Shown one piece after another: positions 1 to 40,130 of a DNA stretch of 64,000 nucleotides (positions within the stretch are counted from its first letter, which is position 1; each line of letters begins with the position of its first letter). This stretch comes from Candidatus Wildermuthbacteria bacterium RIFOXYD1_FULL_50_12 (GTDB taxonomy: Bacteria; Patescibacteriota; Minisyncoccia; Minisyncoccales; UBA10102), in NCBI GenBank assembly GCA_001825035.1, contig MHUO01000004.1:155476-219475 (forward strand), given 5' to 3'. A program made the translations under genes and the position numbers. The notes beneath the pieces are model-generated. The model did not search any database. It had not been told where the DNA came from and was given only the letters and a program-made list of their open reading frames with translations.

Positions 1-81
1 GGATGGGAGCCCAAGATTTCATTGGATGAAGGGATCGAGAAAACTATGGCTTGGTATAAAGAGCATTATGATTATCAGTAA
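1..81 (+). CDS. 3' end of an NAD-dependent sugar epimerase/dehydratase (partial, runs off window start)
   Basis: Frame 1 reads ...WEPKISLDEGIEKTMAWYKEHYDYQ*, a typical C-terminus of GDP/dTDP-sugar 4,6-dehydratase/epimerase family proteins. The stop overlaps the next gene start (ATGA). Not in the ORF track because it is partial. Confidence 0.4.
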   Translation, partial: GWEPKISLDEGIEKTMAWYKEHYDYQ

Positions 82-1060
82 AACCCCATTTCGCATATCT
101 TTTTTTGGCGGAGGGACCGACTATCCGGTTTGGTTCAGAGAGCATGGCGGCCAAGTATTGTCTACCACGATAGACAAGTATTGCTATTTGAGCGTTCGGT
201 ATTTCCCGCCGTTTTTCCCTTATAAGCACCGTATTGTGTACTCGAAGATTGAAACGGTCAATGACATTGGTGAGATTCTGCATCCGGCAGTAAAAGCAAC
301 GTTGGAATTTTTCAAAATCGAGAAGGGGCTGTCAATCCATCATGACGGCGATTTGCCCGCCCGCACCGGCTTAGGATCGAGTTCCTCCTTTACTGTTGGT
401 CTGTTGCACGCCTTACACGGTTTGCAGGGGCAGAACATTTCAAAGGAGGAATTAGCGAGAGAAGCAATTCACTTGGAAAGAGACATGCTCAAAGAAAATG
501 TTGGATCCCAAGATCAGGTTGCGGTTGCGTATGGGGGATTGAATAAGCTTGTGTTTTCCGGAGCGAACGACGTGAGTGTTCAGCCGATTGCCGTGAGTGA
601 AGCAAGGAGAAAAGAATTGGAATCGCATCTCGCCCTTTACTTTACAGGATTTTCCAGATACGCATCGGAAGTGGCGAAAGAACAAATTGAAAAGACGCCG
701 CAAAAGCAAAAAGAGCTGCAGGCAATAAGTGATATGGTAGATCAGGGAATAGATATTTTACAAAACGAAAAAGTAAGTATTTTGGGATTTGGGAAACTCT
801 TAGGGGAATCGTGGCAACTGAAAAGAAGTTTAACGGATAAGATATCCACTGTCCAAATCGACGCGCTCTATGAGAGGGCAGTAAGGGCTGGAGCGGTCGG
901 CGGGAAGCTCTTGGGAGCAGGCGGTGGAGGGTTTATGCTTTTATTTATTCCTCCTGACAAACAGCAGAACGTGAGAGAGGCATTGAAAGACCTGCTGGAG
1001 GCTCCATTCCATTTCGAAAGAGGAGGGAGCCAGATTATCTATCGTAATTCAACGGTATGA
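68..1060 (+). CDS. hddA: GHMP-family sugar kinase, D-glycero-D-manno-heptose 7-phosphate kinase (HddA-like)
   Basis: N-terminus MIISKTPFRISFFGGGTDYP is the GHMP/HddA signature, and there is a GLGSSSS ATP loop. The track ORF starts at 26, but ATG 68 overlaps the upstream stop and matches HddA N-termini. Confidence 0.7.
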   Translation: MIISKTPFRISFFGGGTDYPVWFREHGGQVLSTTIDKYCYLSVRYFPPFFPYKHRIVYSKIETVNDIGEILHPAVKATLEFFKIEKGLSIHHDGDLPARTGLGSSSSFTVGLLHALHGLQGQNISKEELAREAIHLERDMLKENVGSQDQVAVAYGGLNKLVFSGANDVSVQPIAVSEARRKELESHLALYFTGFSRYASEVAKEQIEKTPQKQKELQAISDMVDQGIDILQNEKVSILGFGKLLGESWQLKRSLTDKISTVQIDALYERAVRAGAVGGKLLGAGGGGFMLLFIPPDKQQNVREALKDLLEAPFHFERGGSQIIYRNSTV

Positions 1061-1575
1061 TTGAAGTTTCGAAAACAAATTTAAGAGGAGTGCTTCGGAT
1101 CGTTCCAGAAGTATTCCGTGACCATCGGGGGCAATTCGTGGAGACATACAGCAGGGAGCTTTATAAGAAAAGCGGAATTGGCTTTGATTTTGTGCAGGAC
1201 GATATTTCTCGTTCAAAAAAAGATGTTTTGCGCGGAATCCACGGCGACAAGGAAACTTCCAAATTGGTTTCCTGCACATACGGGAAATTGTTTTTTGTGG
1301 TGGTAAATTGCAACGAGGAATCCTCAGAGTTTGGGAAATGGCAATCGTTTGAGCTCTCTGACGAAAACAGAATGCAAATTTTTGTGCCGCCCACTTATGG
1401 CATTGCGTATTTGGTATTGAGCGATGAGGCCGTGTTTACCTATAAGCAATCTACGTACTTTGTGCACGGAAAGCAGTTCAGCTACCGATGGGATGATCCG
1501 CGATTTGGAATCAATTGGCCGATTACCAATCCTATTTTGTCGGAAAGAGACAAAGCGGGGCATTATGTCAGATAG
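1057..1575 (+). CDS. RmlC-like cupin sugar 3,5-epimerase (dTDP-4-dehydrorhamnose 3,5-epimerase family; could act on GDP-heptose)
   Basis: Motifs VLRGIHGD and FRDHRGQFVETY, at RmlC-like length (172 aa). Confidence 0.7.
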   Translation: MIEVSKTNLRGVLRIVPEVFRDHRGQFVETYSRELYKKSGIGFDFVQDDISRSKKDVLRGIHGDKETSKLVSCTYGKLFFVVVNCNEESSEFGKWQSFELSDENRMQIFVPPTYGIAYLVLSDEAVFTYKQSTYFVHGKQFSYRWDDPRFGINWPITNPILSERDKAGHYVR

Positions 1576-2884
1576 CATTACAAAAGCAGTTATCGTAGCT
1601 GGAGGGAAAGGAACGCGTTTGGCGACTTTTACCAACAATACGGCCAAAGCCCTGGTGGAAATTGGGGGGAAGCCGATTATCCAGCATCAAATTGAGCTTT
1701 TACGAGGACAGGGGGTCAAAGAGATTTGGCTGCTGTTAGGGCATTTAGGAGAGCAAATACAGCATTTTGCCGAGCAAAAAGATTGGGGAGTTGTTTTGCA
1801 TTTTCTGCATGAGAAGCAGCCGTTGGGTACTGCAGGCGCGCTCAAGCAGCTCGAAGGGGAAATACAAGAAGATTTTTTTGCTTTGTCGGGGGATGTCATG
1901 ATAAACATTGACCTCCAGAGATTCGTAGATTGGCACACACAAAAAGAGGGAATCGCATCTCTCATGGTTCATCCGAATGACCATCCGTTTGACTCAGATC
2001 TGGTGGAAGCAGACGGGAAAGGAAGGGTATTGTCGCTCTTGCGAAGGCCACACGCAGAGGACCTCGTGTTTCGCACTTTAAGCATCGCCTCTCTGTATAT
2101 TTTTTCGCCAAGAATTTTTCCTTATATACCCAAAGGAGAAAAATCCGACATGGAGAAAGATGTTTTGCCAAAGCTTTTGCAGGCAAATGAAAACATTTAT
2201 GCCTACAATACCCCAGAATACATTAAGGATATGGGTACGCCCAATAGGTTAGAAGAAGTACGAAAAGATTATGAATCGGGAAAAATATTCAGAATGAGTC
2301 TGAAAAATGAAAGGCGAGCAATTTTTCTTGATCGGGACGGCGTACTCAATGAAGAAGTTGATCAGCTTGCAAAGATTGAGGATTTCAGATTGTACGATTT
2401 TACTCCAGAGGCCGTGAAGAAAATTAATGAGAGTGATTTTATGGCAATCGTAGTCTCCAACCAACCCATGGTTGCCAAAGGATTTATGACAGAGAAAGAT
2501 GTGCAAGAGATGCAGAAAGAACTGGAAACAGAGTTAGGTAAGAAAGGCGCCAAGATAGACGCAGCGTATTATTGTTTCCACCATCCGGAGAAGGGGTTTG
2601 AGGGCGAGAGGCCCGAATTAAAAATCGAATGCGCCTGCAGGAAGCCAAAGCCCGGCCTTCTGTTGGAGGCACAAAAAGATTTTCATATAGATCTCAAGAG
2701 ATCCTATATGATTGGCGACCAGACGGTGGATATCTTGGCCGGCAGGAACGCGGGATGCAAAACAGTATTGGTGCAAACCGGCTATGCAGGGAAAGATGCA
2801 AGGTGCGAGGCAGAACCAGATGGAAGAGCGCAAGACGTTTTGGATGCGGTAAATAACATAATGCTTGCTCAAGCTGCTGTATGA
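1565..2884 (+). CDS. Bifunctional sugar-1-phosphate nucleotidyltransferase (HddC-like) fused to HAD-type D,D-heptose 1,7-bisphosphate phosphatase (GmhB-like)
   Basis: N-terminal half has AVIVAGGKGTRLATFTNNTAKALVEIGGKPII (NTP-transferase G-loop). C-terminal half has IFLDRDGVLNEE, CxC..RKPKPGLL and IGDQTVDILAGRNAGC (GmhB-like HAD motifs). Start taken at internal ATG 1565; the track ORF starts at 1424. Confidence 0.7.
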   Translation: MSDSITKAVIVAGGKGTRLATFTNNTAKALVEIGGKPIIQHQIELLRGQGVKEIWLLLGHLGEQIQHFAEQKDWGVVLHFLHEKQPLGTAGALKQLEGEIQEDFFALSGDVMINIDLQRFVDWHTQKEGIASLMVHPNDHPFDSDLVEADGKGRVLSLLRRPHAEDLVFRTLSIASLYIFSPRIFPYIPKGEKSDMEKDVLPKLLQANENIYAYNTPEYIKDMGTPNRLEEVRKDYESGKIFRMSLKNERRAIFLDRDGVLNEEVDQLAKIEDFRLYDFTPEAVKKINESDFMAIVVSNQPMVAKGFMTEKDVQEMQKELETELGKKGAKIDAAYYCFHHPEKGFEGERPELKIECACRKPKPGLLLEAQKDFHIDLKRSYMIGDQTVDILAGRNAGCKTVLVQTGYAGKDARCEAEPDGRAQDVLDAVNNIMLAQAAV

Positions 2885-4353
2885 ATTACGGGATCGAAAT
2901 AAAAAATCTTCTGTTCACGAACGGAACAGTCAAGCAAACGATTTTTAAGAATGTTGTTTGGGGGTCGGCAGGTAGTATGGTTAACAAGCTGCTTTCTTTT
3001 GTTTTACTGATTTATGCCGCCCGCATTTTGGGGGCAGAGGGGTACGGTCAAATCACCTTTGCGTTGGCTTTTGCATCTCTCTTTATCATACTTTCCCATT
3101 TTGGATTGCCTTCTATCATTACGCGTGAGTTTGCAAGAAAAGAGGGAGGGGAAGACGAATTCTATGCAATTCTTTGTTTGAAAATTATATTGGTTCTGTT
3201 AACCTTCGTTTTGATTGCAGCAGTAAGTTTTTTGACAATTTCATCGTCGGAAGTACGCATACTCACTGTAATCATAGGATCTTTCCTTTTAATGAATAGT
3301 CTCATCGGCACTGCATACTCTTTTTTCCACGCACGACAGAAAATGGAGTACGAGGCTTGGCTGGAGGGCGTCCAGATGCTGCTTATGTTAAGTTTGGGAT
3401 TATTTGTTTTGTTTCGTTTTCCTTCACCTCAAAACTTAAGCTACGTATATCTTGCATCTGCTTTTTTGGCTCTCCTGGCGACATACGTTTTCTTCGAAAG
3501 AAAGATTTTCCGCCTGAAGTTGAAATGCGATATTTCTATCTGGAAAAAGTATTTAAAAATGTCTTTACCGTTAGCGTTAAGTAGCATATTTGCCATGCTG
3601 TATGCATATACCGATTCAGTCATGCTCGGTTATTCGGACATGTTTGCGGAAACAGGGTGGTATAATGCTGCCCAAAGAATTGTATTGTTGGCTTTAATTC
3701 CCATGGGTCTTATTGCCTCGAGTTTTTATCCTGCTCTAAGCAAGCTGTCTAAGGAGTCGGGGCAACTTTTCCAGAAAATGTGGGACTACGAGTTGGAAAT
3801 AATGCTTGCGCTTGCTTTTCCCGTGGTAACGGGGGGAATTGTGTTAGCCTCAACCATTATCTTCTTTTTGTACACCGCAGATTTCACGCCTGCTATTCTG
3901 GCCCTTCAGTTTTCAGTCGTAACCGTGGGGCTTAATTTCTTGTATAGGCCATTTAACGATGTAATGATTATCTCAAATCATGAAGGGAAAATGTTTTGGA
4001 TTACGCTTGTTGGGGCTGGAATAAATGTAGCTCTAAACCTAATTCTTATTCCCCGGTACAGTTTGTATGGAGCAGCAGGAGCAACGGTAGCTACCTATAG
4101 CTTACTTCTGATAGTTATTATGGTTTTTGTAAAAAAGTTTACCACCTTGCGGTTTCCTCTTGCGCGCATTGGGCTTACGGTGTTGACGTCTGGTTTTTCA
4201 GCATTTCTTATGTATATGGCACTGCAATATCTGCTTTTATCCCACATGCATGTTGTGCTGTTGATGCTTGTGGGTGCGGCAGTGTATTTATTTGCTTTTT
4301 TGGGTTTTCGAAAGTTTGTTGTAACTAAATATTTCAAACAGGTATATGCATGA
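2881..4353 (+). CDS. wzx: Wzx-like oligosaccharide flippase (MOP superfamily polysaccharide biosynthesis protein)
   Basis: 490 aa with about 12-14 predicted TM helices. N-terminal region GSAGSMVNKLLSFVLLIYAARILGAEGYG is typical of Wzx/RfbX. Confidence 0.65.
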   Translation: MNYGIEIKNLLFTNGTVKQTIFKNVVWGSAGSMVNKLLSFVLLIYAARILGAEGYGQITFALAFASLFIILSHFGLPSIITREFARKEGGEDEFYAILCLKIILVLLTFVLIAAVSFLTISSSEVRILTVIIGSFLLMNSLIGTAYSFFHARQKMEYEAWLEGVQMLLMLSLGLFVLFRFPSPQNLSYVYLASAFLALLATYVFFERKIFRLKLKCDISIWKKYLKMSLPLALSSIFAMLYAYTDSVMLGYSDMFAETGWYNAAQRIVLLALIPMGLIASSFYPALSKLSKESGQLFQKMWDYELEIMLALAFPVVTGGIVLASTIIFFLYTADFTPAILALQFSVVTVGLNFLYRPFNDVMIISNHEGKMFWITLVGAGINVALNLILIPRYSLYGAAGATVATYSLLLIVIMVFVKKFTTLRFPLARIGLTVLTSGFSAFLMYMALQYLLLSHMHVVLLMLVGAAVYLFAFLGFRKFVVTKYFKQVYA

Positions 4354-5113
4354 AGACAAAAAGATTTTAGCTTTAATACCAGCTCGCGGAGGATCAAAGT
4401 CCATACCCAAGAAAAACATTGTTGATTTGGACGGGTTTCCGTTAATTGCCTATTCTATAGCTGCCGCCAAAATGTCACCACATATCTCAAGAATTGTGGT
4501 AAGCACAGATTCAAAAGAGATAGCCGAAATCGCGAAACAGTACGGCGCAGAAGTTCCTTTTATGAGGCCGGCAGAGTACGCCAGAGACGATTCTCCGGAC
4601 ATTGAGTTTTTTCGCCATGCGTTGGAGTGGCTGCAGGAACAAGAAAGATATATACCAGATCTGGTGGTGCACTTGCGGCCTACCACTCCGCTGCGGGAGC
4701 CGGCACTCGTAGACAAGGCCATCGAGGAGATCATTGCCGACGAAAACGCTACGGCGCTCCGAAGCGCTCACGAATCAGAACATACTGCTTACAAGTTGTT
4801 CCGAAAAGAAGGAGACTACATACATTTCTTCGGGCAGGAAGACTTTGCTCAAAACGAAGAGTATTATAACCGTGGGAGGCAGATTCTTCCGAAAACATAC
4901 AATCCGAATGGGTATGTGGACGTGATACGGCCGGAAGTGCTGCAGCAGACCGGCATGCTTCACGGGCTTCGCATACGCGCGTTTATTACCGAACGTGTAG
5001 CCGATATCGACCGGAAAGAAGACATTGCTTCTGCCGAGCAGCTGCTCAAAGAAGAGAAATTCCGACCCCTTCTACGCTTTTTAGAAAATCAAAAACCAAA
5101 TACTTATGCCTAA
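4346..5113 (+). CDS. neuA: Acylneuraminate (CMP-nonulosonate) cytidylyltransferase, NeuA/PseF/LegF family
   Basis: LALIPARGGSKSIPKKNIVDL matches the CMP-NeuAc synthetase glycine-rich motif. Family-typical length. Confidence 0.75.
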   Translation: MHEDKKILALIPARGGSKSIPKKNIVDLDGFPLIAYSIAAAKMSPHISRIVVSTDSKEIAEIAKQYGAEVPFMRPAEYARDDSPDIEFFRHALEWLQEQERYIPDLVVHLRPTTPLREPALVDKAIEEIIADENATALRSAHESEHTAYKLFRKEGDYIHFFGQEDFAQNEEYYNRGRQILPKTYNPNGYVDVIRPEVLQQTGMLHGLRIRAFITERVADIDRKEDIASAEQLLKEEKFRPLLRFLENQKPNTYA

Positions 5114-5810: not shown

Positions 5811-5827
5811 CCTTTAATATTTGTTCT

Positions 5828-6487: not shown

Positions 6488-6490
6488 TCC

Positions 6491-9125: not shown

Positions 9126-9149
9126 CAAATAATAAGGAGTAATAAAACT

Positions 9150-10022
9150 ATGGAAAGAAAAAAAGTGACAATCGGAGGAAAAACGATAGGAGAGGGCGAG
9201 CCGACGTTCATCATCGCCGAGATAGGGATTAACCATAACGGCAGTTTGGAAAACGCCCAAAAACTTATTGACGTTGCGGTGGACGCGGGATGCGACGCAG
9301 TAAAGTTCCAAAAGCGGACGATAGACGTTGTGTACACTCCAGAAGAATTAGTTCGGCCGAGAGAAAGCGTGTTTGGGAATACGAATGGAGATTTAAAGCG
9401 CGGACTCGAGTTTGGCGAGAAAGAATATGCGGAAATTGACCGATACTGCAAAGAAAAAGGCATTATGTGGTTCGCTTCCCCGTGGGATGAGGGGAGCGTC
9501 GATTTCCTTGCAAAGTTCGATATTCCGTGTTATAAAATAGCTTCACCCTCCCTTACGGATGACAACCTTTTAAGGCATGTTCGATCCAAGGGAAAGTCGA
9601 TTATTCTTTCAACGGGAATGAGTACGGTGGAGCAAATTCGTCATGCCGTGGAGGTTTTGAGTGAAGATGATCTGGTTCTTCTCCATTGCACTTCCACATA
9701 TCCAGGAGCAGACGAGGAACTGAATTTAAAGGTAATTCCATGGTTAAAAGAGCAGTTTTCCTGCCCTATCGGGTACAGCGGTCATGAGGTTGGAGTGTAT
9801 TCTTCGTTGGTGGCAGCTGTGCTGGGTGCTTGTGTAGTGGAGCGGCATATTACGTTGGATCGTGCAATGTGGGGGTCAGATCAAGCAGCCTCTCTGGAGC
9901 CACAGGGAATTGAACGACTGGTTGGCAGTATCAGATCTATCCCTATATGGTTGGGAGACGGCAAAAAAAGAGTATTCGAAAGTGAACTTCCCATTCTGCA
10001 GAAACTCCGGAGGGTAAAATAA
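9150..10022 (+). CDS. neuB: NeuB-family nonulosonic acid synthase (N-acetylneuraminate/pseudaminate/legionaminate synthase-like), apparently lacking most of the C-terminal SAF domain
   Basis: IIAEIGINHNGSLENAQKLIDVAVDAGCDAVKFQKRT is the NeuB TIM-barrel signature. At 290 aa it is shorter than typical ~340 aa NeuB proteins. Confidence 0.75.
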   Translation: MERKKVTIGGKTIGEGEPTFIIAEIGINHNGSLENAQKLIDVAVDAGCDAVKFQKRTIDVVYTPEELVRPRESVFGNTNGDLKRGLEFGEKEYAEIDRYCKEKGIMWFASPWDEGSVDFLAKFDIPCYKIASPSLTDDNLLRHVRSKGKSIILSTGMSTVEQIRHAVEVLSEDDLVLLHCTSTYPGADEELNLKVIPWLKEQFSCPIGYSGHEVGVYSSLVAAVLGACVVERHITLDRAMWGSDQAASLEPQGIERLVGSIRSIPIWLGDGKKRVFESELPILQKLRRVK

Positions 10023-10025
10023 ATC

Positions 10026-22446: not shown

Positions 22447-22450
22447 AAAT

Positions 22451-22621: not shown

Positions 22622-23386
22622 ATGGAAGAAAGGAAGCGAAGGGAAATTGAATATTATGACGCTGAAGCGGTCCGCCAAAGAGTAAGCAGTTTTGTGCCTT
22701 CGGCTTTGGGAAGTTATCAATTTTTGTACAAAGTTGCGACACCCTGGATAAAGGGCAAAAAAGTGCTGGACTACGGATGTGGCGATGGCCGGCATACGCA
22801 GTTTCTCGCCGAACATGCGAAAGAAGTGATAGGAATTGATTTGTCAGAGAGATCTTTGGAAATAGCAAAGAAGATTGCGGTGCGAGAAGGTGTAGAGGAG
22901 AAAGTGAAGTTTTTGAAAATGGACTGCGAGGCAATGGAGTTTCCTGACAATTCGTTTGACGTAGTATTTGACGGCGGCACGTTTTCTTCTCTGGATTTTG
23001 AAAAGGCGATAGGAGAAATTATGCGCGTGCTGCAGCCGGACGGAGCGCTCGTGGGCATCGAAACGTTTGGGCACAATCCTTTGACAAATGCAAAGCGGGT
23101 GCTGAACCGCCTTACGGGCAAGAGAACGGCATGGGCCGCCTCGCACATCGTGCAGCAAAAAGAACTTGAGCGTTTAAGGCAGAATTTTGAGCAAATTGAG
23201 GTTTTCTATTTCCATCTTATTTCTTTGTCCGCGTTTCCGTTGCTCGATTTACCAGGAGGGCGCCTTGTGCTACGATTGCTTGAAGGAATTGATAACTTAC
23301 TCCTGCACATTCCTTTTCTGCAAAAGTACTCGTTCAAAGTAGTATTCTTGTGCAAAGACCCACGATATGGTAAAAAGATTACTTGA
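22622..23386 (+). CDS. Class I SAM-dependent methyltransferase (paralog of 21616..22446)
   Basis: VLDYGCGDGRHTQFLAEHAKEVIGIDLS and DVVFDGG. Confidence 0.6.
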   Translation: MEERKRREIEYYDAEAVRQRVSSFVPSALGSYQFLYKVATPWIKGKKVLDYGCGDGRHTQFLAEHAKEVIGIDLSERSLEIAKKIAVREGVEEKVKFLKMDCEAMEFPDNSFDVVFDGGTFSSLDFEKAIGEIMRVLQPDGALVGIETFGHNPLTNAKRVLNRLTGKRTAWAASHIVQQKELERLRQNFEQIEVFYFHLISLSAFPLLDLPGGRLVLRLLEGIDNLLLHIPFLQKYSFKVVFLCKDPRYGKKIT

Positions 23387-23960
23387 TCTCGTACTCTCTT
23401 CTATCGGACTGTTTCTCGCCTCGCCTTTTCTTCTTATCATTGCGCTTGCAATAAAGCTGGATTTGCCGGGGCCTGTATTTTACAGAGGCGTGCGGGTAGG
23501 GAAGCATGGAAAACAGTTTCGCATGTTTAAGTTTCGCAGCATGGTAGCAAACGCAGACAAAATCGGAGGGCCATCAACAGCAGGAGATGATCCTCGGCTT
23601 ACTCCTGTAGGGAAGCTTTTGAAGAAATATCAGTTGGACGAACTTCCCCAGCTTTTCAATGTGCTGAGAGGCGAGATGAGTATTGTGGGGCCGAGGCCTG
23701 AGGTTCCTTTGTATGTGGATATGATGACAGAAGAGGAGAAACGTGTTATTCTCTCTGTGCGGCCGGGGATGACGGACTGGGCTTCTTTGTGGAATTTTCA
23801 CGAAGGGGAAATTTTGCGGGGAAGCAAGGATCCGGAAAAAACATATCAGGAGAAAATTCGGCCCGAAAAAATCCGCCTGCAGATGAAGTACGTGAAAGAA
23901 CGAAATCTTTGGGTGGACTTAAAAATTATTGTCAAGACGGTTCTGGAGATATTTCAATGA
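23367..23960 (+). CDS. Small monotopic polyprenyl-phosphate sugar-1-phosphate transferase (PglC/WbaP C-terminal-domain-like initiating transferase)
   Basis: KRLLDLVLSSIGLFLASPFLL...DLPGPVFYRGVRVGKHGKQFRMFKFRSM...LDELPQLFNVLRGEMSIVGPRPE is the bacterial sugar transferase family signature. Confidence 0.8.
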   Translation: MVKRLLDLVLSSIGLFLASPFLLIIALAIKLDLPGPVFYRGVRVGKHGKQFRMFKFRSMVANADKIGGPSTAGDDPRLTPVGKLLKKYQLDELPQLFNVLRGEMSIVGPRPEVPLYVDMMTEEEKRVILSVRPGMTDWASLWNFHEGEILRGSKDPEKTYQEKIRPEKIRLQMKYVKERNLWVDLKIIVKTVLEIFQ

Positions 23961-24748
23961 CAGCCAATGAATACAACAACATAGCGAACGACGCTCGGAA
24001 AAAAGTGCTTGAGATGATTTATCGGGCTCAATCGAGTCATCTTGGAAGCAATTTTAGTTGCATTGATATCTTGAGCGTTCTTTTTGAACGGATGGATTTA
24101 AAGAAAGATAAGTTTATTGCAAGTAAGGGTTGGGTTGCAGCTTCCGTGTATTATTTTCTTTCCCAAAAGGGTGTTATACCCGAGGCGGATTTGGAACGAT
24201 ATTGTCAGCCGGGCGAAGAGAAGTACATCGGTCTCGTTGAGCCAAGAGGAGTATTCGGTATGGAATTTGCGGGAGGGAGTATGGGGTATGGCTTGCCTGC
24301 TGGCGTTGGTTTTGCGCTCGCAAAAAGATTAAACAGAGAGGAGGGGAATATTCACGTACTTATGTCAGACGGAGAGATGCAAACAGGAACGACATGGGAA
24401 TCGGTGCTTATTGCTAAACACCACAATCTTTCCAATGTGGTGGTTTGGGTGGACAACAATCGCCTGCAGGCGATGGGAGAAACAAAAGCTATCCTCAACG
24501 TGGAGCCTATAGATGAGCGCGTGCGATTGTTCGGGTGGGACGTCCAGCGAATAGACGGTCATGATTTTCTCGCTACTGAGTCTGTCTTCCAGAAACTTGG
24601 AGGATCTTCACCGCATATGATTGTATGCGACACGGTGAAAGGGAAAGGGTGGAAGCGAGCGGAACATAACAATCTTTATCATTATAAGAACATTTCCGAG
24701 GAAGAATTTACCGAAGCAATGCAAGAATTATCAGCTTCCCATGGGTGA
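23957..24748 (+). CDS. Transketolase N-terminal subunit, second copy
   Basis: HLGSNFSCIDILSVLF and GSMGYGLPAGVGFALAKRLNREEGNIHVLMSDGEMQTGTTWESVLIAKHHNLSNVVVWVDNNRLQ. Internal ATG 23957 overlaps the upstream stop. Confidence 0.7.
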   Translation: MTANEYNNIANDARKKVLEMIYRAQSSHLGSNFSCIDILSVLFERMDLKKDKFIASKGWVAASVYYFLSQKGVIPEADLERYCQPGEEKYIGLVEPRGVFGMEFAGGSMGYGLPAGVGFALAKRLNREEGNIHVLMSDGEMQTGTTWESVLIAKHHNLSNVVVWVDNNRLQAMGETKAILNVEPIDERVRLFGWDVQRIDGHDFLATESVFQKLGGSSPHMIVCDTVKGKGWKRAEHNNLYHYKNISEEEFTEAMQELSASHG

Positions 24749-25247
24749 AATAATCCAACAACAGGATAATCGGCGAGCGTTTATTGACACGCTCTGCGAA
24801 CTGGCTGAAAAAGACAAGAACATCGTTTTTATTATCCCGGATGTCGGGTTTAACTATGCAGAGAAATTCCAGAAATTGTATCCGGAGCGTTTTTTCAATT
24901 TCGGCGTGACAGAAGCAAGCTCAACCATTATTGCAGCCGCCCTGGCTTTGGACGGAAAGAAACCCTATCTTTATTCCATGATCAATTTTGTTACGTTCCG
25001 CGTGCACGAAATGTTACGCAACGCCGTGTGTATGCACCAGGCAAATGTCAAAATACTCGGAGTAAAGGGATCTGAAAAATACAAACTTTTGGGCTTTAGC
25101 CATAATCTTCTTGCCGAAGACGAGGAGATAGATTTTTTGAATAAGTTGCCTGGCATGAAAACGTATATTCCCCAAACCCCAGAAGAAACAAGGAATATTA
25201 TTTTGGAAACGTACCAGTCGCCAACTCCTGCTTACATTAGATTGTAA
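24741..25247 (+). CDS. Transketolase C-terminal subunit, second copy, truncated (Pyr domain only, 168 aa)
   Basis: FNFGVTEASSTIIAAALALDGKKPYLYSMINF. It lacks the ~130-aa C-terminal domain present in the 309-aa first copy. Confidence 0.6.
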   Translation: MGEIIQQQDNRRAFIDTLCELAEKDKNIVFIIPDVGFNYAEKFQKLYPERFFNFGVTEASSTIIAAALALDGKKPYLYSMINFVTFRVHEMLRNAVCMHQANVKILGVKGSEKYKLLGFSHNLLAEDEEIDFLNKLPGMKTYIPQTPEETRNIILETYQSPTPAYIRL

Positions 25248-25273
25248 AAGCGCGAGGACAAGAATTTGTCAAA

Positions 25274-25302
25274 TTGCGGAGGGGAGGTGTGTGAGGTATA
25301 AT
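25274..25302 (+). promoter_or_regulatory. Candidate promoter TTGCGG-17-TATAAT within the conserved leader element R1
   Basis: TTGCGG at 25274-25279, TATAAT at 25297-25302. ATG 25311 lies 9 nt downstream, giving a leaderless or short leader. Confidence 0.45.
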
Positions 25303-25310
25303 TTTGCTAT

Positions 25311-26525
25311 ATGGCAAGATCTGCTTTTGGAGCTTTGGGCCGCGAGGTTCGAACAAGGAATATTTCCAAACGTATCCAAAAAACAGTCCTCTCGCCGATT
25401 AAAGAGATGTCGCTTTTGGCTGACGAGGCTGGAGGGGATATTATCTCTTTTGGTCAAGGCATCCCATACTTTGATACGCCAGAGTATATTAAAGACGGCA
25501 TCCGCGCCGCCCTGCAAGAAAAAGATACGGCGCGCTATACGTTAGAGCCCGGCATTACCGAACTGCGAGAGCTTATCGCAAAAGATTTAATGACGCGCAA
25601 GGGGATTCAAGGCGTCAATTTCAGGCGCGAAGTTATGGTAAACAGCGGCTGCCAAGAGGCGATTATGTGCGCTCTGGCCACGCTTATTGATGAGGGCGAC
25701 GAGGTGCTTTTGCTTTCGCCTTCCTTCGCTTCCTATTCAGAACAGATTCTCCAACTTGGCGGCACACCCGTGTTTGTGCCGCTGGAGGAGGAGCGTGGCT
25801 GGCGCTTGAATACGCAAGCGGTACGCGACGCGATAAGCAAGAAAACGAAAGCGATTTTGTTTTCCCATCCGTCAAACCCCACAGGCACTGTTTTTACCAA
25901 AGAAGAGCTGAGGAGTTTAACTGATATTGCCAAAGAAAACGATTTAGTGGTGATTGTTGACGAAACATACGATTTTCTTACCTACGAAGGCATTGAGCAT
26001 GTTTCGCCAGCTTCTTTTCCCGACATTCGAGACCGCGTGATTCTGTGCGGGAGTTTTTCCAAAAAGTACGCGCTTACCGGTTACCGAGTGGGGTATGCGT
26101 TTGCCGAGCAGGGGATTATGGATCATATGCTCAAAGTGCACGACGCCCTGCAGATTTGCGCGCCCGCCATTTCTCAAAAGGCCGCCATTGCCGCGTTGCG
26201 CGGAGATCAGAAAAGCGTTGCAGAATTCAGGGAGAAGCTTGGAGAGAATCGCGAACGTATGTGTCAGAAATTGGACGAACTCTCCGATTTTTTTGAATAC
26301 CAAAAACCAGATGGTGCTTATTATATCCTTGCCAAGGTGGAAAAACCGCAGATGCCTTCGGTTGAGCTCGCGATAAAAATTCTCCGAGAGGCCAAAGTGA
26401 TTACCATCCCCGGAATTGCGTTTGGGCCCGCGGGCGAAGGCCACTTGCGGTTCTCTTTTGCCTGCAGTCCCGAGGAGATTGAAGAGGGTTTCCGCCGTCT
26501 TGCAAACTGGTTCAAGGCCCTTTAG
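25311..26525 (+). CDS. Class I/II PLP-dependent aminotransferase (AspC-like)
   Basis: NISKRIQKTVLSPIKEM...GDIISFGQGIPYFDTP aligns with the AspC N-terminus (LSKRVQSIKPS...GEPDFDTP). Lys region SFSKKYALTGYRVGY. Confidence 0.7.
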   Translation: MARSAFGALGREVRTRNISKRIQKTVLSPIKEMSLLADEAGGDIISFGQGIPYFDTPEYIKDGIRAALQEKDTARYTLEPGITELRELIAKDLMTRKGIQGVNFRREVMVNSGCQEAIMCALATLIDEGDEVLLLSPSFASYSEQILQLGGTPVFVPLEEERGWRLNTQAVRDAISKKTKAILFSHPSNPTGTVFTKEELRSLTDIAKENDLVVIVDETYDFLTYEGIEHVSPASFPDIRDRVILCGSFSKKYALTGYRVGYAFAEQGIMDHMLKVHDALQICAPAISQKAAIAALRGDQKSVAEFREKLGENRERMCQKLDELSDFFEYQKPDGAYYILAKVEKPQMPSVELAIKILREAKVITIPGIAFGPAGEGHLRFSFACSPEEIEEGFRRLANWFKAL

Positions 26526-27340
26526 GAGATGAGGATGGATAAGACCGTGCGATCCGAACCGAATGTTTCCGGGTTCTCTTTCGCCTTTTGGGCGGAAAAT
26601 GCATCCAACGTCGATGTATTTCCTTTCCGAAGTAGGTTTACGAATTCGGGGAATTGGAAATACGGCTCAAAACCATCGGAGTATAACACGATAAGATCTT
26701 CAGAATGGACGCGTACGGTGCCTATTCTGTAATACAACGCGGCCTCTTGCTCTCCGGTAAAAGCGCCGTATCCTGATCCGTTAGAATTATTGCGCAGTTC
26801 TTTTTTTATCAATTCTCGTCTCTCTCTTACGTCTTCCATCTGCATGTAAGGAGCAATTATTGGTTTGAGTGTGTTTTCCGTTTGAAACAAGAGCTCGTTA
26901 TTTTTATTGAACAAAGCGAGGCCGCAATCGCTGAGATACCCATAGAGAAGAGCGGAGCGAGAGATTGTCGCGGCAACGCCTACGCAGTCAAAAAAGTCCC
27001 GCTCCCGATAATTGATGGCGCTCTTGGTCATCCCCTCGTTTTCGTTCATCTCGCGGATTCTGTCGTTTGCGAAGTTGAGTGCTTCGCGGATTGTTTCTTC
27101 CTGCGGATTCGCGCCTTTCTCAAATTCTTTTTCGAGATACTCAAGGATACTCTGACAGAAAATTTGAGCCGCGGCTCTCGCGCCCGCAGGATAAGAATAG
27201 CGCAGATCTTCAGCTACATATCGTGTGACGCCGTCTGCAACTGAAAAAATGGGGTACTTTTCTGAAGCCAAAAAATAATCCTCGTTGGGCTTTCGATTGA
27301 ATTTAACGGCATCCGTGTAGGTGGCGGAAAATGTGCGCAT
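26522..27340 (-). CDS. PP2C/PPM-family protein phosphatase domain protein (paralog 1)
   Basis: KPNEDYFL...FSVADGVT (motif 1-2 like), LYSDGF (motif 8), SDRTVLSI (motif 11). Similar architecture to the upstream paralog. Confidence 0.5.
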   Translation of the reverse strand: MRTFSATYTDAVKFNRKPNEDYFLASEKYPIFSVADGVTRYVAEDLRYSYPAGARAAAQIFCQSILEYLEKEFEKGANPQEETIREALNFANDRIREMNENEGMTKSAINYRERDFFDCVGVAATISRSALLYGYLSDCGLALFNKNNELLFQTENTLKPIIAPYMQMEDVRERRELIKKELRNNSNGSGYGAFTGEQEAALYYRIGTVRVHSEDLIVLYSDGFEPYFQFPEFVNLLRKGNTSTLDAFSAQKAKENPETFGSDRTVLSILIS

Positions 27341-27370
27341 ACGAGCTGATTATACCTGCGGCGTAGCTCG

Positions 27371-27410
27371 AATGAAAGAGCCCCCGACACGGTCGTGCGG
27401 TGTCGGGGGC
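27371..27410 (-). terminator. Candidate intrinsic terminator between the two PP2C-like genes
   Basis: 11-bp stem GCCCCCGACAC/GTGTCGGGGGC (27380-27390 / 27400-27410), followed on the minus strand by UCUUUCAUU. Confidence 0.45.
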
Positions 27411-27438
27411 TTTGCAGTTGCGAGACGGTGGCGTTCGT

Positions 27439-28335
27439 TTAGAACACGAGCGCTATCGCTGTTGCTTCAGCCTGCTTTATATAGTTGGTTGCTGCGATTT
27501 GTTTCTCTGCGGCGCGCGCCGAGAGCAGAAGGCCTGCGAGTCCGCCGAGTTTAAACTCAGCAAGAAGTGTGCGGCAGGCTTCCTCACCGCTCGAGGTCTC
27601 CACGGATTTCGGCATCATACCGTCCGTGACGAGTAAGAGAGTGCTTACCTCTTCGAGGGGGAGAGCCCATTCTTGAAGCAGGTGGACGAGCGCGTCTTGC
27701 CCGTTGAGGATACCGTATCCTTGCGGACTTGCAGGATTGTTGGCATCTCGGCGTCTCGCATTGCGGAGCGGCTGGTAGAAGCGATTCCACATCTCACTCC
27801 GCACGGTGTCGCGATGTTCTTCTGGTACTTTTTCGAGGGTGAGTCCGAATAGTTCTCGCGCGACTTCGCGCTGGAGTCGTTTGATCTGAGCACGCATCTC
27901 TTCTTCATGGCGTTTGGCCTGGTTTGGCGTCACGAGAATTGTGTCACCTTTTAGCTCCACAATCGCCAGGCAGTTGCCTGCCTGTACTATGTTTACGCTT
28001 TTGTCATCAACCCATGCGAAGGCGAGAACGGCACCGGCAAGCTCTCCCGCGTCATCCAGCACGCCGGCATCTCGCTGTACCTTGCCAACCACCTTGTTTA
28101 TATCCAGAACAAGGTTGCGAAGGTCGGGCGACGTTGTGTGGATATGAGCAAACCTCTCGCACGTTCGCGCTACCATTTCACCGCCCGACATCCCGTCAAA
28201 CATCCGAGGAGGGGACTTTGGTGCGTATGGCGCGCTTGTGCCGTCGAGAACTCCGAAAACCCGGCTTCCCACCACGATGAGTCCGTCCTCGCGGTGTGGG
28301 GCGGAACCTTGATCATAGATTGTGCTGACCTTCAA
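27439..28335 (-). CDS. PP2C/PPM-family protein phosphatase domain protein (paralog 2)
   Basis: HREDGLIV...FGVLDGTS, LLLVTDGM and AIALVF. Same motif order as 26522..27340. Confidence 0.5.
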   Translation of the reverse strand: MKVSTIYDQGSAPHREDGLIVVGSRVFGVLDGTSAPYAPKSPPRMFDGMSGGEMVARTCERFAHIHTTSPDLRNLVLDINKVVGKVQRDAGVLDDAGELAGAVLAFAWVDDKSVNIVQAGNCLAIVELKGDTILVTPNQAKRHEEEMRAQIKRLQREVARELFGLTLEKVPEEHRDTVRSEMWNRFYQPLRNARRRDANNPASPQGYGILNGQDALVHLLQEWALPLEEVSTLLLVTDGMMPKSVETSSGEEACRTLLAEFKLGGLAGLLLSARAAEKQIAATNYIKQAEATAIALVF

Positions 28336-28437
28336 TTCCTTGCCTCCTTTGGTAACGAGCGGTTGATTGTAGCGAGAAAAGTGTATTATAAATTTTAACT
28401 TCTGTCAACCTTGCGGAGGGGGGGGGTTTGAGGTAGG

Positions 28438-29568: not shown

Positions 29569-29583
29569 TGAGCTCGTCGAACT

Positions 29584-31458: not shown

Positions 31459-31483
31459 CATAAACCTTGTTTTGTGATAGAAT
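31455..31483 (+). promoter_or_regulatory. Consensus sigma70 promoter TTGACA-17-TGnTAGAAT driving the FN3 secreted protein
   Basis: TTGACA at 31455-31460, 17-nt spacer, extended -10 TGATAGAAT ending at 31483. ATG 31491 follows 8 nt later. Confidence 0.6.
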
Positions 31484-31490
31484 ATTTATC

Positions 31491-32741
31491 ATGAAACGCG
31501 TTGTTTTTGGATTTACATTTCTTTTGATTTTAACGCTTGCCATTGGAGCTGCGCCTGTTTTTGCGCAGGGTCAAGAGGCGAGTGAACAGGAGCGTATTCA
31601 AGAGCTCCAAGCCGTTGTGCTTCAACTGTTTAAACTTGTGGCAGAGTTGCAGCAGCAGATTTTCAATATACAAGCAGCGCGTATATCTGGCGTCCCCGCA
31701 GTAGCTACATCTATTTTGAGTTGCGGGCAGGCAGAAGTAACATGGGAAAAGGTTTCGGGGGCGACCGGATATGTGCTATATCGCAATGATAGCGAAGTGT
31801 ACGACGGAAAAGATCTCAAGTTTTTGGATACAGGACTGATGCCAGGCGCTATGTATGCCTATACCGTACGCGCGAGAAACGCGGGCGGCCTCAGTGCGGC
31901 CTCTCCGGTACAAACAATTACCGTTCCTTCAGAGTGCCCGCCTTCCCCGCCCATTGTGTGGGCGCAGGCAGGAGTGTGCGGCGGAACCGTGCAGGTTTCG
32001 TGGAGCAGGCCAGTGGGAGCTGTGTTCTACGAGGTGTATCGGGGGAGCAAGCTGGTATTTAGCGGAAGCACGTTTTCTTTCCTCGATGGGGGATTGAGCG
32101 TTGGCAAAACCTACACCTACAAAGTGCGCGCCGGGAACGCGGGCGGATGGGGAGCGTTTTCAAAAGAGGTAAGCGCCACCTCTTCTGTCGTGTGCCCGCC
32201 TTTGGCTCCCGAAGCCCCAGAAGTGGGAAGCCCGCTTTTGCAGGATACTGCAAGCGAAGGAATTCTGAAGCTTACCATTCAAGGCAGTCCGTCGGGTGCC
32301 ACAGCAAAGTCAGGAGAAGCTGGCGTAAACGTGTTGAGTTTCCGGGTAAGCTCCGTGCTTTCTTCCATGGTGGTGGAGCGCGTGGATGTTGAGTTTACGG
32401 ACCGACCGTGGCTCTTTCTCTCTGACGTGGAACTTCGCGACGGCTCCAAGACCATTGCGCGCATGCAAGTCTCCGAGAATTCGTTTGCGCGTACGGATAC
32501 AGACAGGTATCGTTTGAGCTTTACCGGATTATCGGTGCAGGTTTCAAAAGGAGGAAGCAAAACATTAACGGTGCGCGTTGTGGCAAAAGAAGATTTGCTT
32601 TTGGCAGAGCCACGGGCGCTTACCGTTGCAATACCCGAAAACAGTGTGCGAACAAGAGATCAAATTGGCGTGGTTCACACCGGCCCCGTTGCAGAGCAGG
32701 CAAACTCCTTTGCAAAGACCTTTTTCGTGAAGAAAAAGTAG
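31491..32741 (+). CDS. Secreted protein with signal peptide, coiled-coil segment, two fibronectin type III-like repeats and a C-terminal beta-rich domain
   Basis: MKRVVFGFTFLLILTLAIGAAPVFAQG is a signal peptide. Repeats TWEKVSGATGYVLYRND...YAYTVRARNAGGLSAAS and VSWSRPVGAVFYEVYRG...YTYKVRAGNAGGWGAFS. The track ORF starts at 31467. Confidence 0.55.
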   Translation: MKRVVFGFTFLLILTLAIGAAPVFAQGQEASEQERIQELQAVVLQLFKLVAELQQQIFNIQAARISGVPAVATSILSCGQAEVTWEKVSGATGYVLYRNDSEVYDGKDLKFLDTGLMPGAMYAYTVRARNAGGLSAASPVQTITVPSECPPSPPIVWAQAGVCGGTVQVSWSRPVGAVFYEVYRGSKLVFSGSTFSFLDGGLSVGKTYTYKVRAGNAGGWGAFSKEVSATSSVVCPPLAPEAPEVGSPLLQDTASEGILKLTIQGSPSGATAKSGEAGVNVLSFRVSSVLSSMVVERVDVEFTDRPWLFLSDVELRDGSKTIARMQVSENSFARTDTDRYRLSFTGLSVQVSKGGSKTLTVRVVAKEDLLLAEPRALTVAIPENSVRTRDQIGVVHTGPVAEQANSFAKTFFVKKK

Positions 32742-40128: not shown

Positions 40129-40130
40129 TT

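Follow-up and report, generated by a model that had tools for sequence, protein, structure and literature searches.

The 64,000-nucleotide stretch of the Candidatus Wildermuthbacteria bacterium RIFOXYD1_FULL_50_12 genome analyzed here (contig MHUO01000004.1, positions 155,476 to 219,475; hereafter the window) carries a large glycan locus. It is our moderately confident reading that four nucleotide-sugar modules of this locus, based upon guanosine diphosphate (GDP), cytidine monophosphate (CMP), cytidine diphosphate (CDP) and uridine diphosphate (UDP), build a heavily tailored surface oligosaccharide linked to undecaprenyl phosphate (Und-P) in this member of the Parcubacteria. The gene families, the anatomy of the locus, the conservation of its modules and its sequence signatures were all observed directly, and the organizing feature is a two-subunit thiamine diphosphate (ThDP) enzyme beside each 4,6-dehydratase module. 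Systems of this general kind are known and the variant is an unusual one; what is new is a transketolase subfamily tied to nucleoside diphosphate (NDP)-sugar genes, the loss of a cysteine loop from RfbH, and the coupling of NeuB to phosphatases and GmhA. Sequences used for comparison are referred to by L numbers.

Results

Non-canonical split transketolases beside NDP-sugar genes

Two split transketolase-like pairs lie in the window and a third ThDP pair, resembling the alpha and beta subunits of pyruvate dehydrogenase E1 (PDH-E1), lies upstream of it; all three adjoin an NDP-sugar 4,6-dehydratase module. Pair 1 holds the Pfam domains Transketolase_N, Transket_pyr and Transketolase_C, its best match in the PDB is the characterized split transketolase of C. 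hydrogenoformans (6yaj), and homologues of its N subunit are abundant at 60-66% identity. In a scan of one genome per species, in which the best 80 loci were retained and their contexts resolved by tblastn and mapping of open reading frames (ORFs), NDP-sugar genes were found at 44 of 57 non-canonical split transketolase loci as opposed to none of 17 canonical ones (Fisher p=5e-9). The hosts of the subfamily span the Candidate Phyla Radiation (CPR), Omnitrophota, Acidobacteriota, Planctomycetota, Chloroflexota, Proteobacteria and Bacillota, and two gene contexts recur among them. One, RfbF-RfbG-(RfbH)-[GNAT~DegT fusion]-TKN-TKC, where TKN and TKC denote the two transketolase-like subunits, is seen in Anaerolineales, Terracidiphilus, Omnitrophota and a gammaproteobacterium, with variants that omit RfbH and the fusion in Bradyrhizobium, Planctomycetales, Sphingobium, Lachnospiraceae and Bacteroidales. 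The other, PglC-(TylF)-TKN-TKC-DegT-PglF, is seen in Saccharibacteria, Planctomycetota, Acidobacteriota, Verrucomicrobiota, an uncultured actinomycete, Hoeflea, Brevundimonas and Roseovarius. Both are present in the window.

These proteins are also set apart by their residues. In every sugar-context C subunit the 'LDADLSKST' of the 6yaj reference has become 'xxxDLGFSV', and 'THAGxxVGEDGxSHQ' has become 'GGGxxYGxxGxTHH'; the C subunit of pair 1 itself reads 'TNDLGFSV' and 'GGGLSYGTAGLTHH' in place of the canonical 'DADLxxST' and 'H[AG]G..GEDGxSHQ'. A housekeeping transketolase identity was rejected on these motifs of the Pyr domain together with the gene context. Likewise, the short C subunit of pair 2 might have been taken for a truncation at the edge of an island, which is ruled out by the occurrence of the same 263+168-aa pair after PglC in the relative L090. 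The close relatives L090 and L092 further show what amounts to a naturally occurring exchange between a keto-reductase and a tailoring block based on transketolase: both retain RfbF/G/H and PglC together with the glycosyltransferases and methyltransferases, while a single short-chain dehydrogenase/reductase (SDR) replaces GNAT, DegT1 and pair 1. Pair 2 is kept in L090, and the L092 contig ends just beyond PglC. From their sequences and surroundings, we infer that each of the three ThDP pairs acts upon the 4-keto sugar of its own module, probably adding carbon branches.

Branching of keto sugars by ThDP enzymes is known for YerE-like enzymes in lipopolysaccharide (LPS) and for the alpha-KADH2 pairs of actinomycete metabolites, and the 13 putative split transketolases that have been listed are all from Streptomycetes and all uncharacterized (PMC12247030). 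Our literature search found no publication that joins a transketolase with CDP-glucose and polysaccharide loci.

An RfbH devoid of iron-sulfur ligands in the CDP module

The CDP module comprises RfbF- and RfbG-like enzymes, a GNAT N-acyltransferase, the aminotransferase DegT1, pair 1 and RfbH (Table 1). The RfbG-like protein scores nearly equally on models for GalE and for the dehydratase of deoxythymidine diphosphate (dTDP)-glucose. Homologues of GNAT and DegT1 (54-55% identity) form one fused ORF of ~610 aa directly upstream of a transketolase pair in four other phyla (L012, L038, L065, L086), and both genes belong to this conserved module. RfbH is of the E1 type and has kept the catalytic histidine that replaces the lysine to which pyridoxal phosphate (PLP) would bind, 'SFYASHH' aligning to E1 His220. 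The [2Fe-2S] loop of E1, however, aligns to 'RDWGRE-FDEPGMQT---DRF', which is four residues shorter and contains no cysteine. Three to four loop cysteines are present in 115 of the 120 best homologue clusters and are absent only from the five closest (at least 78% identity); the RfbH proteins of other phyla that are associated with transketolase all retain them. A Pfam scan of the window ORFs and of the 7 kb upstream revealed no protein with Fer2, FAD_binding_6 or NAD_binding_1, and as such no E3 (DdhD/AscD) reductase in these regions. This fits an RfbH that has lost its [2Fe-2S] loop, and the simplest reading of the sequence is that the enzyme would carry out a ColD-like, reductase-independent 3-deoxygenation.

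A UDP module split by an insert

The genes for PglC, pair 2, DegT3 and the membrane-anchored PglF-like dehydratase are contiguous in L010 (PglC-TK-TK-DegT-PglF) and stand in a similar order in L025, L027, L035 and L047; PglF and DegT3 of the window thus belong with PglC and pair 2, even though 3.2 kb (25311..28335) of higher GC content and no obvious relation to glycans now lies between them.

A SAF-less NeuB of a family that travels with phosphatases and GmhA

The NeuB-family synthase of the CMP module matched only PF03102 in the Pfam scan, the C-terminal SAF (AFP-like) domain being absent, and it scores well under the cut-offs of NeuB_NnaB (262 bits against 400) and PseI (217 against 340). 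Such SAF-less proteins of ~290 aa are kept at 72-95% identity over many CPR clusters. The sugar isomerase (SIS) gene that begins 3 bp downstream encodes an authentic GmhA, judging by its model score and an alignment to C. jejuni GmhA that is conserved along the full length. In every close context examined (the window, L099-L103 and L105) an SIS gene directly follows NeuB, whether fused to it (L099), fused to a radical S-adenosylmethionine (SAM) domain (L100) or as a separate gene (L101, L102, L103, L105), and homologues of the NeuA-like protein (50-59% identity) lie upstream of NeuB in L100-L105. NeuB~SIS fusions are known from two clusters, and no further example was found among the top 150 representatives when the fusion protein P0277 served as query; because the fusion is rare, the argument rests on gene adjacency. 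A haloacid dehalogenase-family (HAD) protein of 164-166 aa follows the SIS in L102 and L103, that of L102 matching the KdsC and BT1713 structures, and an HddA-like kinase was not found within 10 kb in these close loci (L099-L103, L105).

A wider metagenome scan with local tblastn gave 33 evaluable NeuB loci, and in 24 of them a KdsC-like HAD lies no further than 1.3 kb from NeuB. Eight have GmhA at this distance, and ten have it anywhere in the locus. The orders GmhA-NeuB-HAD and NeuB-HAD-GmhA both occur, as does a HAD~SIS fusion; the compact operon MT-NeuB-TIM-GFO-NeuA-SDR-[HAD~SIS] of L141 (MT, methyltransferase) has a gene set equal to that of window 4346-10592, and NeuA~HAD fusions occur in other SAF-less NeuB loci. 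The trio of a TIM barrel, a GFO/IDH/MocA oxidoreductase and an SDR also stands beside SAF-less NeuB in L141, L132, L140 and L143, and the TIM and SDR genes, with no GFO match, in L122, L142 and L149. Pfam scans of the locus, upstream part included, found no Epimerase_2 or PseG-type family, that is, no hydrolyzing 2-epimerase or nucleotidase such as NeuC, LegG or PseG. Since SAF-less NeuB travels with phosphatases of the KdsC/Kdn-9-P type (Kdn being the deaminated sialic acid) and, in this clade, with GmhA, these sequence contexts indicate that the family is best read as using sugar phosphates rather than as being of the pseudaminic/legionaminic acid (Pse/Leg) type. GmhA converts sedoheptulose-7-P to heptose-7-P, and the aldose may as such have seven carbons and the acid ten: where GmhA is linked to NeuB, D-glycero-D-manno-heptose-7-P is a plausible aldose phosphate, and the product would then be a C10 ulosonic acid. 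No KdsC-like phosphatase was found in the window, so dephosphorylation would fall to the GmhB domain of the 1568-2884 fusion or to a distant gene. Precedent for a Kdn-9-P pathway exists in B. thetaiotaomicron (PMC6200933); a literature search returned no publication on NeuB paired with GmhA or on deculosonic acids, nor any treating CPR bacteria together with nonulosonic acids.

The loci of relatives differ in their accessory genes. Those with NeuB and GmhA carry many B12-binding radical SAM and SPASM enzymes (L100 10903-14458; L101 11466-20879; L102 7025-8473 and 16624-17892), and Aminotran_3 and glyoxalase-fold genes occupy the places of the TIM and GFO genes of the window in L100-L102; given these genes, the tailoring of the ulosonic acid appears to be lineage-variable. 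Directly after NeuB in L168 (8922-9800), a locus of the NeuA~HAD-fusion type, there is a sulfotransferase-domain gene, a hint that ulosonic acids may be sulfated in that lineage.

Layout and integrity of the locus

The whole locus measures ~39 kb and starts ~7 kb before window base 1 (10 kb upstream was inspected), so that window 1-31458 is its right-hand ~32 kb, the left part being cut off by the window edge. The SDR whose tail occupies 1..81 is the final gene of an upstream GDP-sugar block. The dense co-directional run at 1-25247 (28 complete plus-strand genes and this tail, from ORF listing and translation) contains eight ATGA overlaps as well as several longer ones, and no gap in it exceeds 175 bp, with all ORFs intact and overlapping in operon style; its GC content is 0.448, against 0.501 in 25248-36729. 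At the head of the locus stands a small HTH_17 (excisionase/MerR-like) gene (L007 2895-3152), as it does in two relatives (L101 1963-2208, L102 1105-1350), and in L007 and L101 it follows a PG_binding_1 gene; this shared position points to a hypervariable locus whose chromosomal site and regulator are conserved. Riboswitches or other RNAs were not found in the locus, an RNase P RNA and two tRNAs being located elsewhere in the window.

Table 1. Genes and other features of the locus, with the upstream block listed first.
Feature	Position (window unless noted)	Strand	Basis
HTH_17, first upstream gene			Pfam/NCBIfam
392-aa DegT (DegT0), ColD-type 3-dehydratase, second upstream gene			'SFYVGHHMSTIEGG', His replaces Lys
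Gmd-like 4,6-dehydratase (SDR), third upstream gene
PDH-E1 alpha/beta-like pair (ThDP), next upstream
Two Fcl-like SDRs and 253-aa epimerase, last upstream
C-terminal tail of the last of these SDRs (323 aa), GDP-L-fucose synthase-like best family match	1..81 (L007 9043-10014; window base 1 = L007 base 9934)	+
GHMP kinase, HddA-like, heptose-7-P 1-kinase candidate	68..1060	+	Pfam GHMP_kinases_N/C; NCBIfam HddA E=2e-44, 152 bits vs cut-off 600
RmlC-like NDP-sugar 3,5-epimerase	1057..1575	+	PF00908 E=3.8e-51; TIGR01221 160.7 bits > cut-off 155.75
Sugar-1-P nucleotidyltransferase (HddC/ManC-like) fused to GmhB-like HAD-IIIA phosphatase	1568..2884	+	GmhB models 129-149 bits
Wzx-type flippase, 11 predicted transmembrane segments	2881..4353	+	PF01943 E=2.3e-36; hydropathy
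CMP-ulosonate synthetase, NeuA/KdsB family	4346..5113	+	PF02348 (CTP_transf_3) E=2e-22; PseF model 141.6 bits, under cut-off
Class I SAM methyltransferase	5106-5810	+	Pfam
TylF-type O-methyltransferase	5828-6487	+	Pfam
Xylose-isomerase-like TIM barrel	6491-7312	+	Pfam/NCBIfam
GFO/IDH/MocA oxidoreductase	7309-8340	+	Pfam/NCBIfam
PtmA-like SDR	8337-9125	+	Pfam/NCBIfam
SAF-less NeuB-family synthase condensing phosphoenolpyruvate (PEP), 290 aa, sugar-phosphate use predicted	9150..10022	+	PF03102 E=8e-80; best PDB match 6ncs (290 aa)
GmhA, sedoheptulose-7-P isomerase	10026..10592	+	TIGR00441 212.2 bits > cut-off 209.45; E=6e-53 to C. jejuni GmhA 1tk9
434-aa soluble protein, weak GT38 polysialyltransferase C-terminal match, candidate CMP-ulosonate transferase	10596..11900	+	PF07388 29.7 bits > cut-off 23.3, residues 298-366 only
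GT10-family glycosyltransferase	11881..12900	+	PF00852 E=2.3e-17
RfbF-like glucose-1-P cytidylyltransferase	12914-13714	+	TIGR02623 full length, E=1.9e-73, 247 bits vs cut-off 300
RfbG-like NDP-hexose 4,6-dehydratase	13764-14747	+	TIGR02622 210 bits vs cut-off 278
GNAT N-acyltransferase	14855-15550	+	Pfam/NCBIfam; PseH best-scoring model
DegT1, Lys-type aminotransferase	15561-16682	+	LegC best-scoring model
Split transketolase-like pair 1, non-canonical subfamily	N subunit 16683-17486, C subunit 17483-18412	+	Pfam, NCBIfam, alignment
RfbH/E1-type NDP-4-keto-6-deoxyhexose 3-dehydratase without [2Fe-2S] Cys loop	18409..19710	+	NF011936 648 bits > cut-off 423; E=1.7e-153 to Yersinia E1 3bcx
Two GT2 glycosyltransferases, second with 2 C-terminal transmembrane segments	19722..21619	+	Pfam, hydropathy
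Two class I SAM methyltransferases	21616-22446 and 22622-23386	+	Pfam
PglC-type small initiating phosphoglycosyl transferase	23367..23960	+	PF02397 E=3e-61
Split transketolase-like pair 2	23957..25247	+	N subunit 263 aa; C subunit 168 aa, Pyr domain only
Class I/II aminotransferase, insert	25311-26525	+	Pfam
PP2C-like genes, insert, divergent	26522-27340 and 27439-28335	-	Pfam
DegT3, PglE-like Lys-type aminotransferase	28438-29568	+	Pfam/NCBIfam
Membrane-anchored PglF-like UDP-GlcNAc 4,6-dehydratase	29584-31458	+	Pfam/NCBIfam, hydropathy
Secreted/anchored protein, two fn3 domains, uncharacterized C-terminal half	31488..32741	+	Pfam, hydropathy
Blocks absent from GW2011 contigs L002/L009 (LCQI01000001), L094 (LCPU01000002), L097 (LCQA01000007)	10083-10196, 10717-10842, 12955-13070, 18907-19066, 19736-19856

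Pfam and NCBIfam profile searches bore out nearly all of the families that an initial annotation had named from the sequence alone. The GDP-heptose-type set (HddA-like kinase, HddC-GmhB fusion, GmhA, RmlC-like epimerase), the four methyltransferases, the GT10 and two GT2 enzymes, the PglC-like transferase, Wzx, and RfbF, RfbG and RfbH with no recognizable E3 all stand at the level of protein family; the profile searches counted three DegT proteins. NCBIfam equivalog cut-offs are exceeded by RfbH, GmhA and RmlC only, the remaining proteins being divergent; the GmhB model, for example, gives the 1568-2884 fusion 149 bits against a cut-off of 178 and the HddC model 67 against 300, mannose-1-P guanylyltransferase models matching this protein better. 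Some amendments are needed. The single-strand arrangement with ATGA overlaps that was proposed for ~35 genes holds for the 1-25247 run and not for the insert, where the PP2C-like genes lie on the minus strand; the presumed dehydratase tail at 1-81 is closest to GDP-fucose synthase; and the gene list had missed both split transketolase-like pairs and the TIM/GFO/SDR trio.

The same annotation had named a chimeric assembly as a finding that would overturn it. An assembly chimera is ruled out because identical sequence (100%) runs across both locus junctions in at least six Rifle groundwater assemblies, on contigs of up to 320 kb. Assemblies of the GW2011 series from 2015 equal the window at 100% save for absent blocks of 50-160 bp, which leave truncated or split genes for GmhA, the 434-aa protein, RfbF and RfbH in the public annotation; these apparent frameshifts are most likely collapsed scaffold gaps rather than pseudogenes.

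Assembly and export genes

Beyond Wzx, PglC and the glycosyltransferases, the window (the region scanned) contains no Pfam family for a Wzy polymerase, chain-length regulator, ligase, oligosaccharyltransferase or LytR-CpsA-Psr (LCP) protein and, by hydropathy, no other polytopic membrane protein, in line with the earlier call of no Wzy or ligase. The likeliest product, from this gene content, would be a single, non-polymerized, heavily modified unit. Homologues of the 434-aa protein come after NeuB-SIS in L099, L101 and L102; it has no sequence match in the PDB, and a single-sequence AlphaFold2 model of it was unusable, with a predicted local distance difference test score (pLDDT) of 38.5.

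The gene for the secreted fn3 protein has a promoter-like site of its own at 31455-31483, and no evidence was found that ties the protein to the glycan; its membership of the locus is uncertain. The protein had been described as secreted and under a perfect promoter. The former holds, whereas the site matches at 11 of 12 positions, with an extended -10 element, and the perfect 12/12 sigma-70 site (TTGACA, 16-nt spacer, TATAAT) is at 32760-32787, ~190 bp upstream of murB.

Remainder of the window

Beyond the locus, a strong terminator-like hairpin (34126-34150) lies just before secA, whose product ends in a Cys-rich tail. Just downstream of secA, the 239-aa product of 37399-38118 joins a C39-like peptidase domain to a similar C-terminal SEC-C zinc motif. 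A low-GC patch (0.40-0.46) at 38505-44288 holds nucleotide "house-cleaning" genes, namely Ham1, an inositol monophosphatase, a queuosine-salvage protein, Maf and four NUDIX hydrolases (39389-39916, 40907-41356, 42220-42918, 42922-43305). At 48301-51261, a 438-aa protein with no Pfam match precedes a TrwB/TraD-type coupling-protein ATPase with a treble-clef zinc finger; the two may belong to, or be left over from, a system for DNA transfer or uptake. The RNase P RNA (Rfam RF00010, 131 bits; 54008-54331, minus strand) overlaps the first ~110 codons of ORF 54007-56040; as the MurJ Pfam match begins only at residue 173 of that ORF, murJ itself probably begins farther downstream, past the RNA gene.

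Discussion

It is reasonable to postulate the following course of assembly. GmhA, the HddA-like kinase and the GmhB~HddC fusion would make GDP-heptose, to be remodeled by the Gmd-like 4,6-dehydratase, the ColD-like 3-dehydratase, the PDH-E1 alpha/beta-like ThDP pair, the Fcl-like reductases and the RmlC-like epimerase. GmhA would also hand an aldose phosphate to the SAF-less NeuB-type synthase, and the phosphorylated ulosonic acid would be dephosphorylated, activated with CMP by the NeuA-like enzyme, and tailored by the TIM, GFO and SDR proteins and two methyltransferases, following the logic of the Kdn-9-P or 3-deoxy-D-manno-octulosonate (Kdo) pathway rather than that of Pse/Leg. RfbF and RfbG would supply CDP-4-keto-6-deoxyglucose, from which the RfbH devoid of Fe-S would remove the 3-hydroxyl by a ColD-like mechanism that dispenses with E3; pair 1 would add a C2 unit to the keto sugar, DegT1 would aminate and GNAT would N-acylate it. 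The PglF-like dehydratase, DegT3 and pair 2 would make a modified bacillosamine-type sugar that PglC moves onto Und-P. The two GT2 enzymes, GT10 and the GT38-like protein may then extend the unit, the four methyltransferases decorate it and Wzx flip it, the final acceptor (protein, lipid or wall) presumably being encoded elsewhere. More specific is our tentative proposal, which we consider possible and rather doubtful, that in Parcubacteria and several uncultivated lineages NeuB condenses PEP with D-glycero-D-manno-heptose 7-phosphate made by GmhA to yield, after dephosphorylation and CMP activation, a C10 3-deoxy-2-ulosonic acid, and that jointly the non-canonical split transketolases are a widespread C2-branching family for the CDP- and UDP-4-keto sugars of surface glycans.

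Several points weigh against this picture. All substrates, products and the order of reactions are predicted from sequence, and as most of the enzymes fall below NCBIfam equivalog cut-offs, their nucleotide and sugar specificities are guesses. Split transketolases have only been proposed as branching enzymes, for miharamycin and amipurimycin, and never shown to be so in vitro (PMC12247030). Pair 2 is divergent in motif and has no Transketolase_C domain, and unrelated genes spanning 3.2 kb break up the UDP module. The window yielded neither a KdsC-like phosphatase nor a transferase to the final acceptor, and in this particular genome GmhA could serve the GDP-heptose branch alone. Moreover, the context statistics come from the best 80 loci per scan, which is not an unbiased census.

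One alternative, which was also the partition of the initial annotation, merges three canonical routes: GDP-heptose, a Pse/Leg-type CMP-nonulosonate made by PglF, DegT, GNAT, NeuB and NeuA, and a CDP-3,6-dideoxyhexose with its E3 encoded elsewhere, the ThDP enzymes being incidental. All of the families it names are indeed found; DegT1 and GNAT score best on LegC and PseH models, and the SDR is PtmA-like, PtmA and PtmF oxidoreductases being companions of Leg clusters. We nonetheless consider it unlikely, as the locus has no NeuC-, LegG- or PseG-type enzyme, the NeuB lacks SAF and comes from a family accompanied by KdsC-like phosphatases and GmhA, GNAT and DegT form a fusion in other phyla that stays with RfbF/G/H and a transketolase pair, PglF and DegT3 go with PglC and a transketolase pair, and an E3 encoded elsewhere would have nothing to reduce in an RfbH devoid of Fe-S ligands. 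Four modules fit better than three pathways: of the CMP-nonulosonate route the NeuA-like and SAF-less NeuB families survive, and PglF, DegT and GNAT pass to the UDP and CDP modules. GmhA also neighbors NeuB in this clade, and its role should therefore not be confined to the GDP-heptose route. The broader description of a tailored surface-glycan or glycoconjugate locus in an uncultivated lineage agrees with the presence of Wzx, the PglC-like transferase and several glycosyltransferases.

Two further alternatives concern the transketolases themselves. The pairs might make a ThDP-bound C2 unit (glycolaldehyde or glycolyl) that GNAT sets as an unusual N-acyl group upon the amino sugar made by DegT, with no branching of the sugar. 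The GNAT~DegT fusions directly upstream of a transketolase pair speak for this, as does the harvesting of C2 units by two-component transketolases for glycolyl-acyl carrier protein (ACP) in the biosynthesis of naphthyridinomycin and quinocarcin; yet the module has no lipoyl, ACP or CoA-ligase partner, and many transketolase modules have no GNAT at all (RfbF-RfbG-SDR-TK in Bradyrhizobium and Planctomycetales, PglC-TylF-TK-DegT), which renders this improbable. That the pairs are ordinary transketolases of the pentose-phosphate pathway, supplying sedoheptulose-7-P to GmhA and heptose synthesis, seems to us more improbable still. The locus does consume sedoheptulose-7-P, the split form is normal in many anaerobes, 6yaj is the nearest structure, and pair 1 scores 275 + 196 bits on the NCBIfam transketolase model (cut-off 488). 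However, other residues stand at the His/Asp/Ser positions by which canonical split transketolases are defined, RfbF/G/H or PglC/PglF accompany the subfamily even in Bradyrhizobium, Paenibacillus and Sphingobium while the 17 canonical loci are devoid of sugar genes, relatives exchange pair 1, GNAT and DegT for a keto-reductase-type SDR, and two pairs plus a PDH-E1 pair in one locus are hard to explain as precursor supply. Lastly, the GC step at ~25.3 kb, the insert within the UDP module and the RfbH, GmhA and RfbF genes broken in some public assemblies might point to a chimeric assembly, or to horizontally acquired fragments in a decaying mosaic from which a defined glycan is no longer made. 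We give this very little credence, given junctions that are identical between assemblies, "broken" genes that trace to collapsed gaps, intact operon-like ORFs and modules that are conserved in other phyla.

If our interpretation is correct, a phylum-spanning subfamily of split "transketolases" acting on nucleotide-activated keto sugars would give new access to branched-chain sugars and to carboligases yielding tertiary alcohols, and the E1/RfbH 3-dehydratase could do without both its Fe-S cluster and a reductase partner. A large family of SAF-less NeuB proteins would use sugar phosphates, and its GmhA-linked subset may make a 10-carbon analogue of sialic acid, a class of sugar acids one carbon longer than the sialic acids. 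The public labels "transketolase" and "N-acetylneuraminate synthase" would then mislead reconstructions of pentose-phosphate and sialic-acid metabolism in CPR genomes. CPR bacteria have small genomes, and the retention of ~39 kb for one glycan implies that surface chemistry matters for a life attached to other cells.

Parts of the locus resemble known systems. With the pgl (PglF/E/D/C) and ptm/leg genes of Campylobacter it shares the membrane PglF-like dehydratase, the PglE-like aminotransferase and the small PglC, and with ptm/leg also the PtmA-like SDR and GFO oxidoreductase beside NeuA- and NeuB-like genes. The PtmA of Leg clusters is a "flagella modification protein" of the SDR type, and their PtmF carries no annotation more specific than oxidoreductase. 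It differs in having no PglD, PglB, LegG, LegH or Maf within the locus, in its SAF-less NeuB, and in the transketolase-like pair between PglC and the aminotransferase. The GDP-heptose modification genes of the C. jejuni capsule, which comprise GmhA, HddA, GmhB and HddC with a 4,6-dehydratase, RmlC-like epimerases and reductases, find counterparts here in the GHMP kinase, HAD phosphatase, nucleotidyltransferase, GmhA, RmlC-like epimerase and Gmd-/Fcl-like SDRs. Unlike in that set, GmhB forms a fusion with HddC, the upstream part adds a ColD-like 3-dehydratase and the PDH-E1 alpha/beta pair, and GmhA is placed with NeuB rather than with HddA.

The CMP module would follow the pathway logic of the CMP-Kdn route of B. 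thetaiotaomicron (BT1714 Kdn-9-P synthase, BT1713 phosphatase and CMP-Kdn synthetase), in which a NeuB-family synthase acting on a sugar phosphate is joined by a KdsC-type C0 HAD phosphatase and a CTP_transf_3 cytidylyltransferase; as in the Kdo route (KdsD-KdsA-KdsC-KdsB), an SIS isomerase would supply the aldose phosphate. Unlike in both, the isomerase is GmhA, the window lacks the KdsC-like phosphatase, and TIM, GFO, SDR and methyltransferase genes are added. The CDP module recalls the ddh/yer genes of Yersinia pseudotuberculosis (DdhA-D, YerE and YerF, for CDP-3,6-dideoxyhexoses and yersiniose A) in the order of its RfbF/RfbG/RfbH chemistry and in the ThDP enzyme beside the 3-dehydratase, which suggests C-branching of CDP-4-keto-3,6-dideoxyglucose as by YerE. 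In contrast to ddh/yer, there is no E3 (DdhD), the E1 has no [2Fe-2S] ligands, the ThDP protein is a two-subunit transketolase type rather than an acetolactate-synthase-type flavoprotein as is YerE, an aminotransferase and GNAT are added, and the host is a CPR bacterium, a group that is not known to make LPS. ColD, the GDP-4-keto-6-deoxymannose 3-dehydratase of colitose synthesis, is likewise a 3-dehydratase using PLP or pyridoxamine phosphate, with histidine for lysine and neither Fe-S cluster nor reductase partner. The upstream DegT0 resembles a true ColD-type enzyme, whereas the enzyme within the window is by sequence an E1/RfbH orthologue (648 bits, against ~200 bits to ColD structures) from which the cluster was secondarily lost.

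The closest likeness for the ThDP pairs is with the C-branching enzymes of actinomycetes, namely the alpha-KADH2 pairs of aldgarose, kibdelomycin, paulomycose and eurekanate and the split-gene transketolases proposed for miharamycin and amipurimycin, where two-subunit E1 alpha/beta- and split-transketolase-type ThDP enzymes likewise lie amid NDP-4-keto-6-deoxysugar genes. Actinomycete deoxysugars are usually dTDP-linked. Unlike those antibiotic clusters, the present one is a surface-glycan locus with Wzx and PglC, and its sugars appear to be CDP-, UDP- and GDP-linked.

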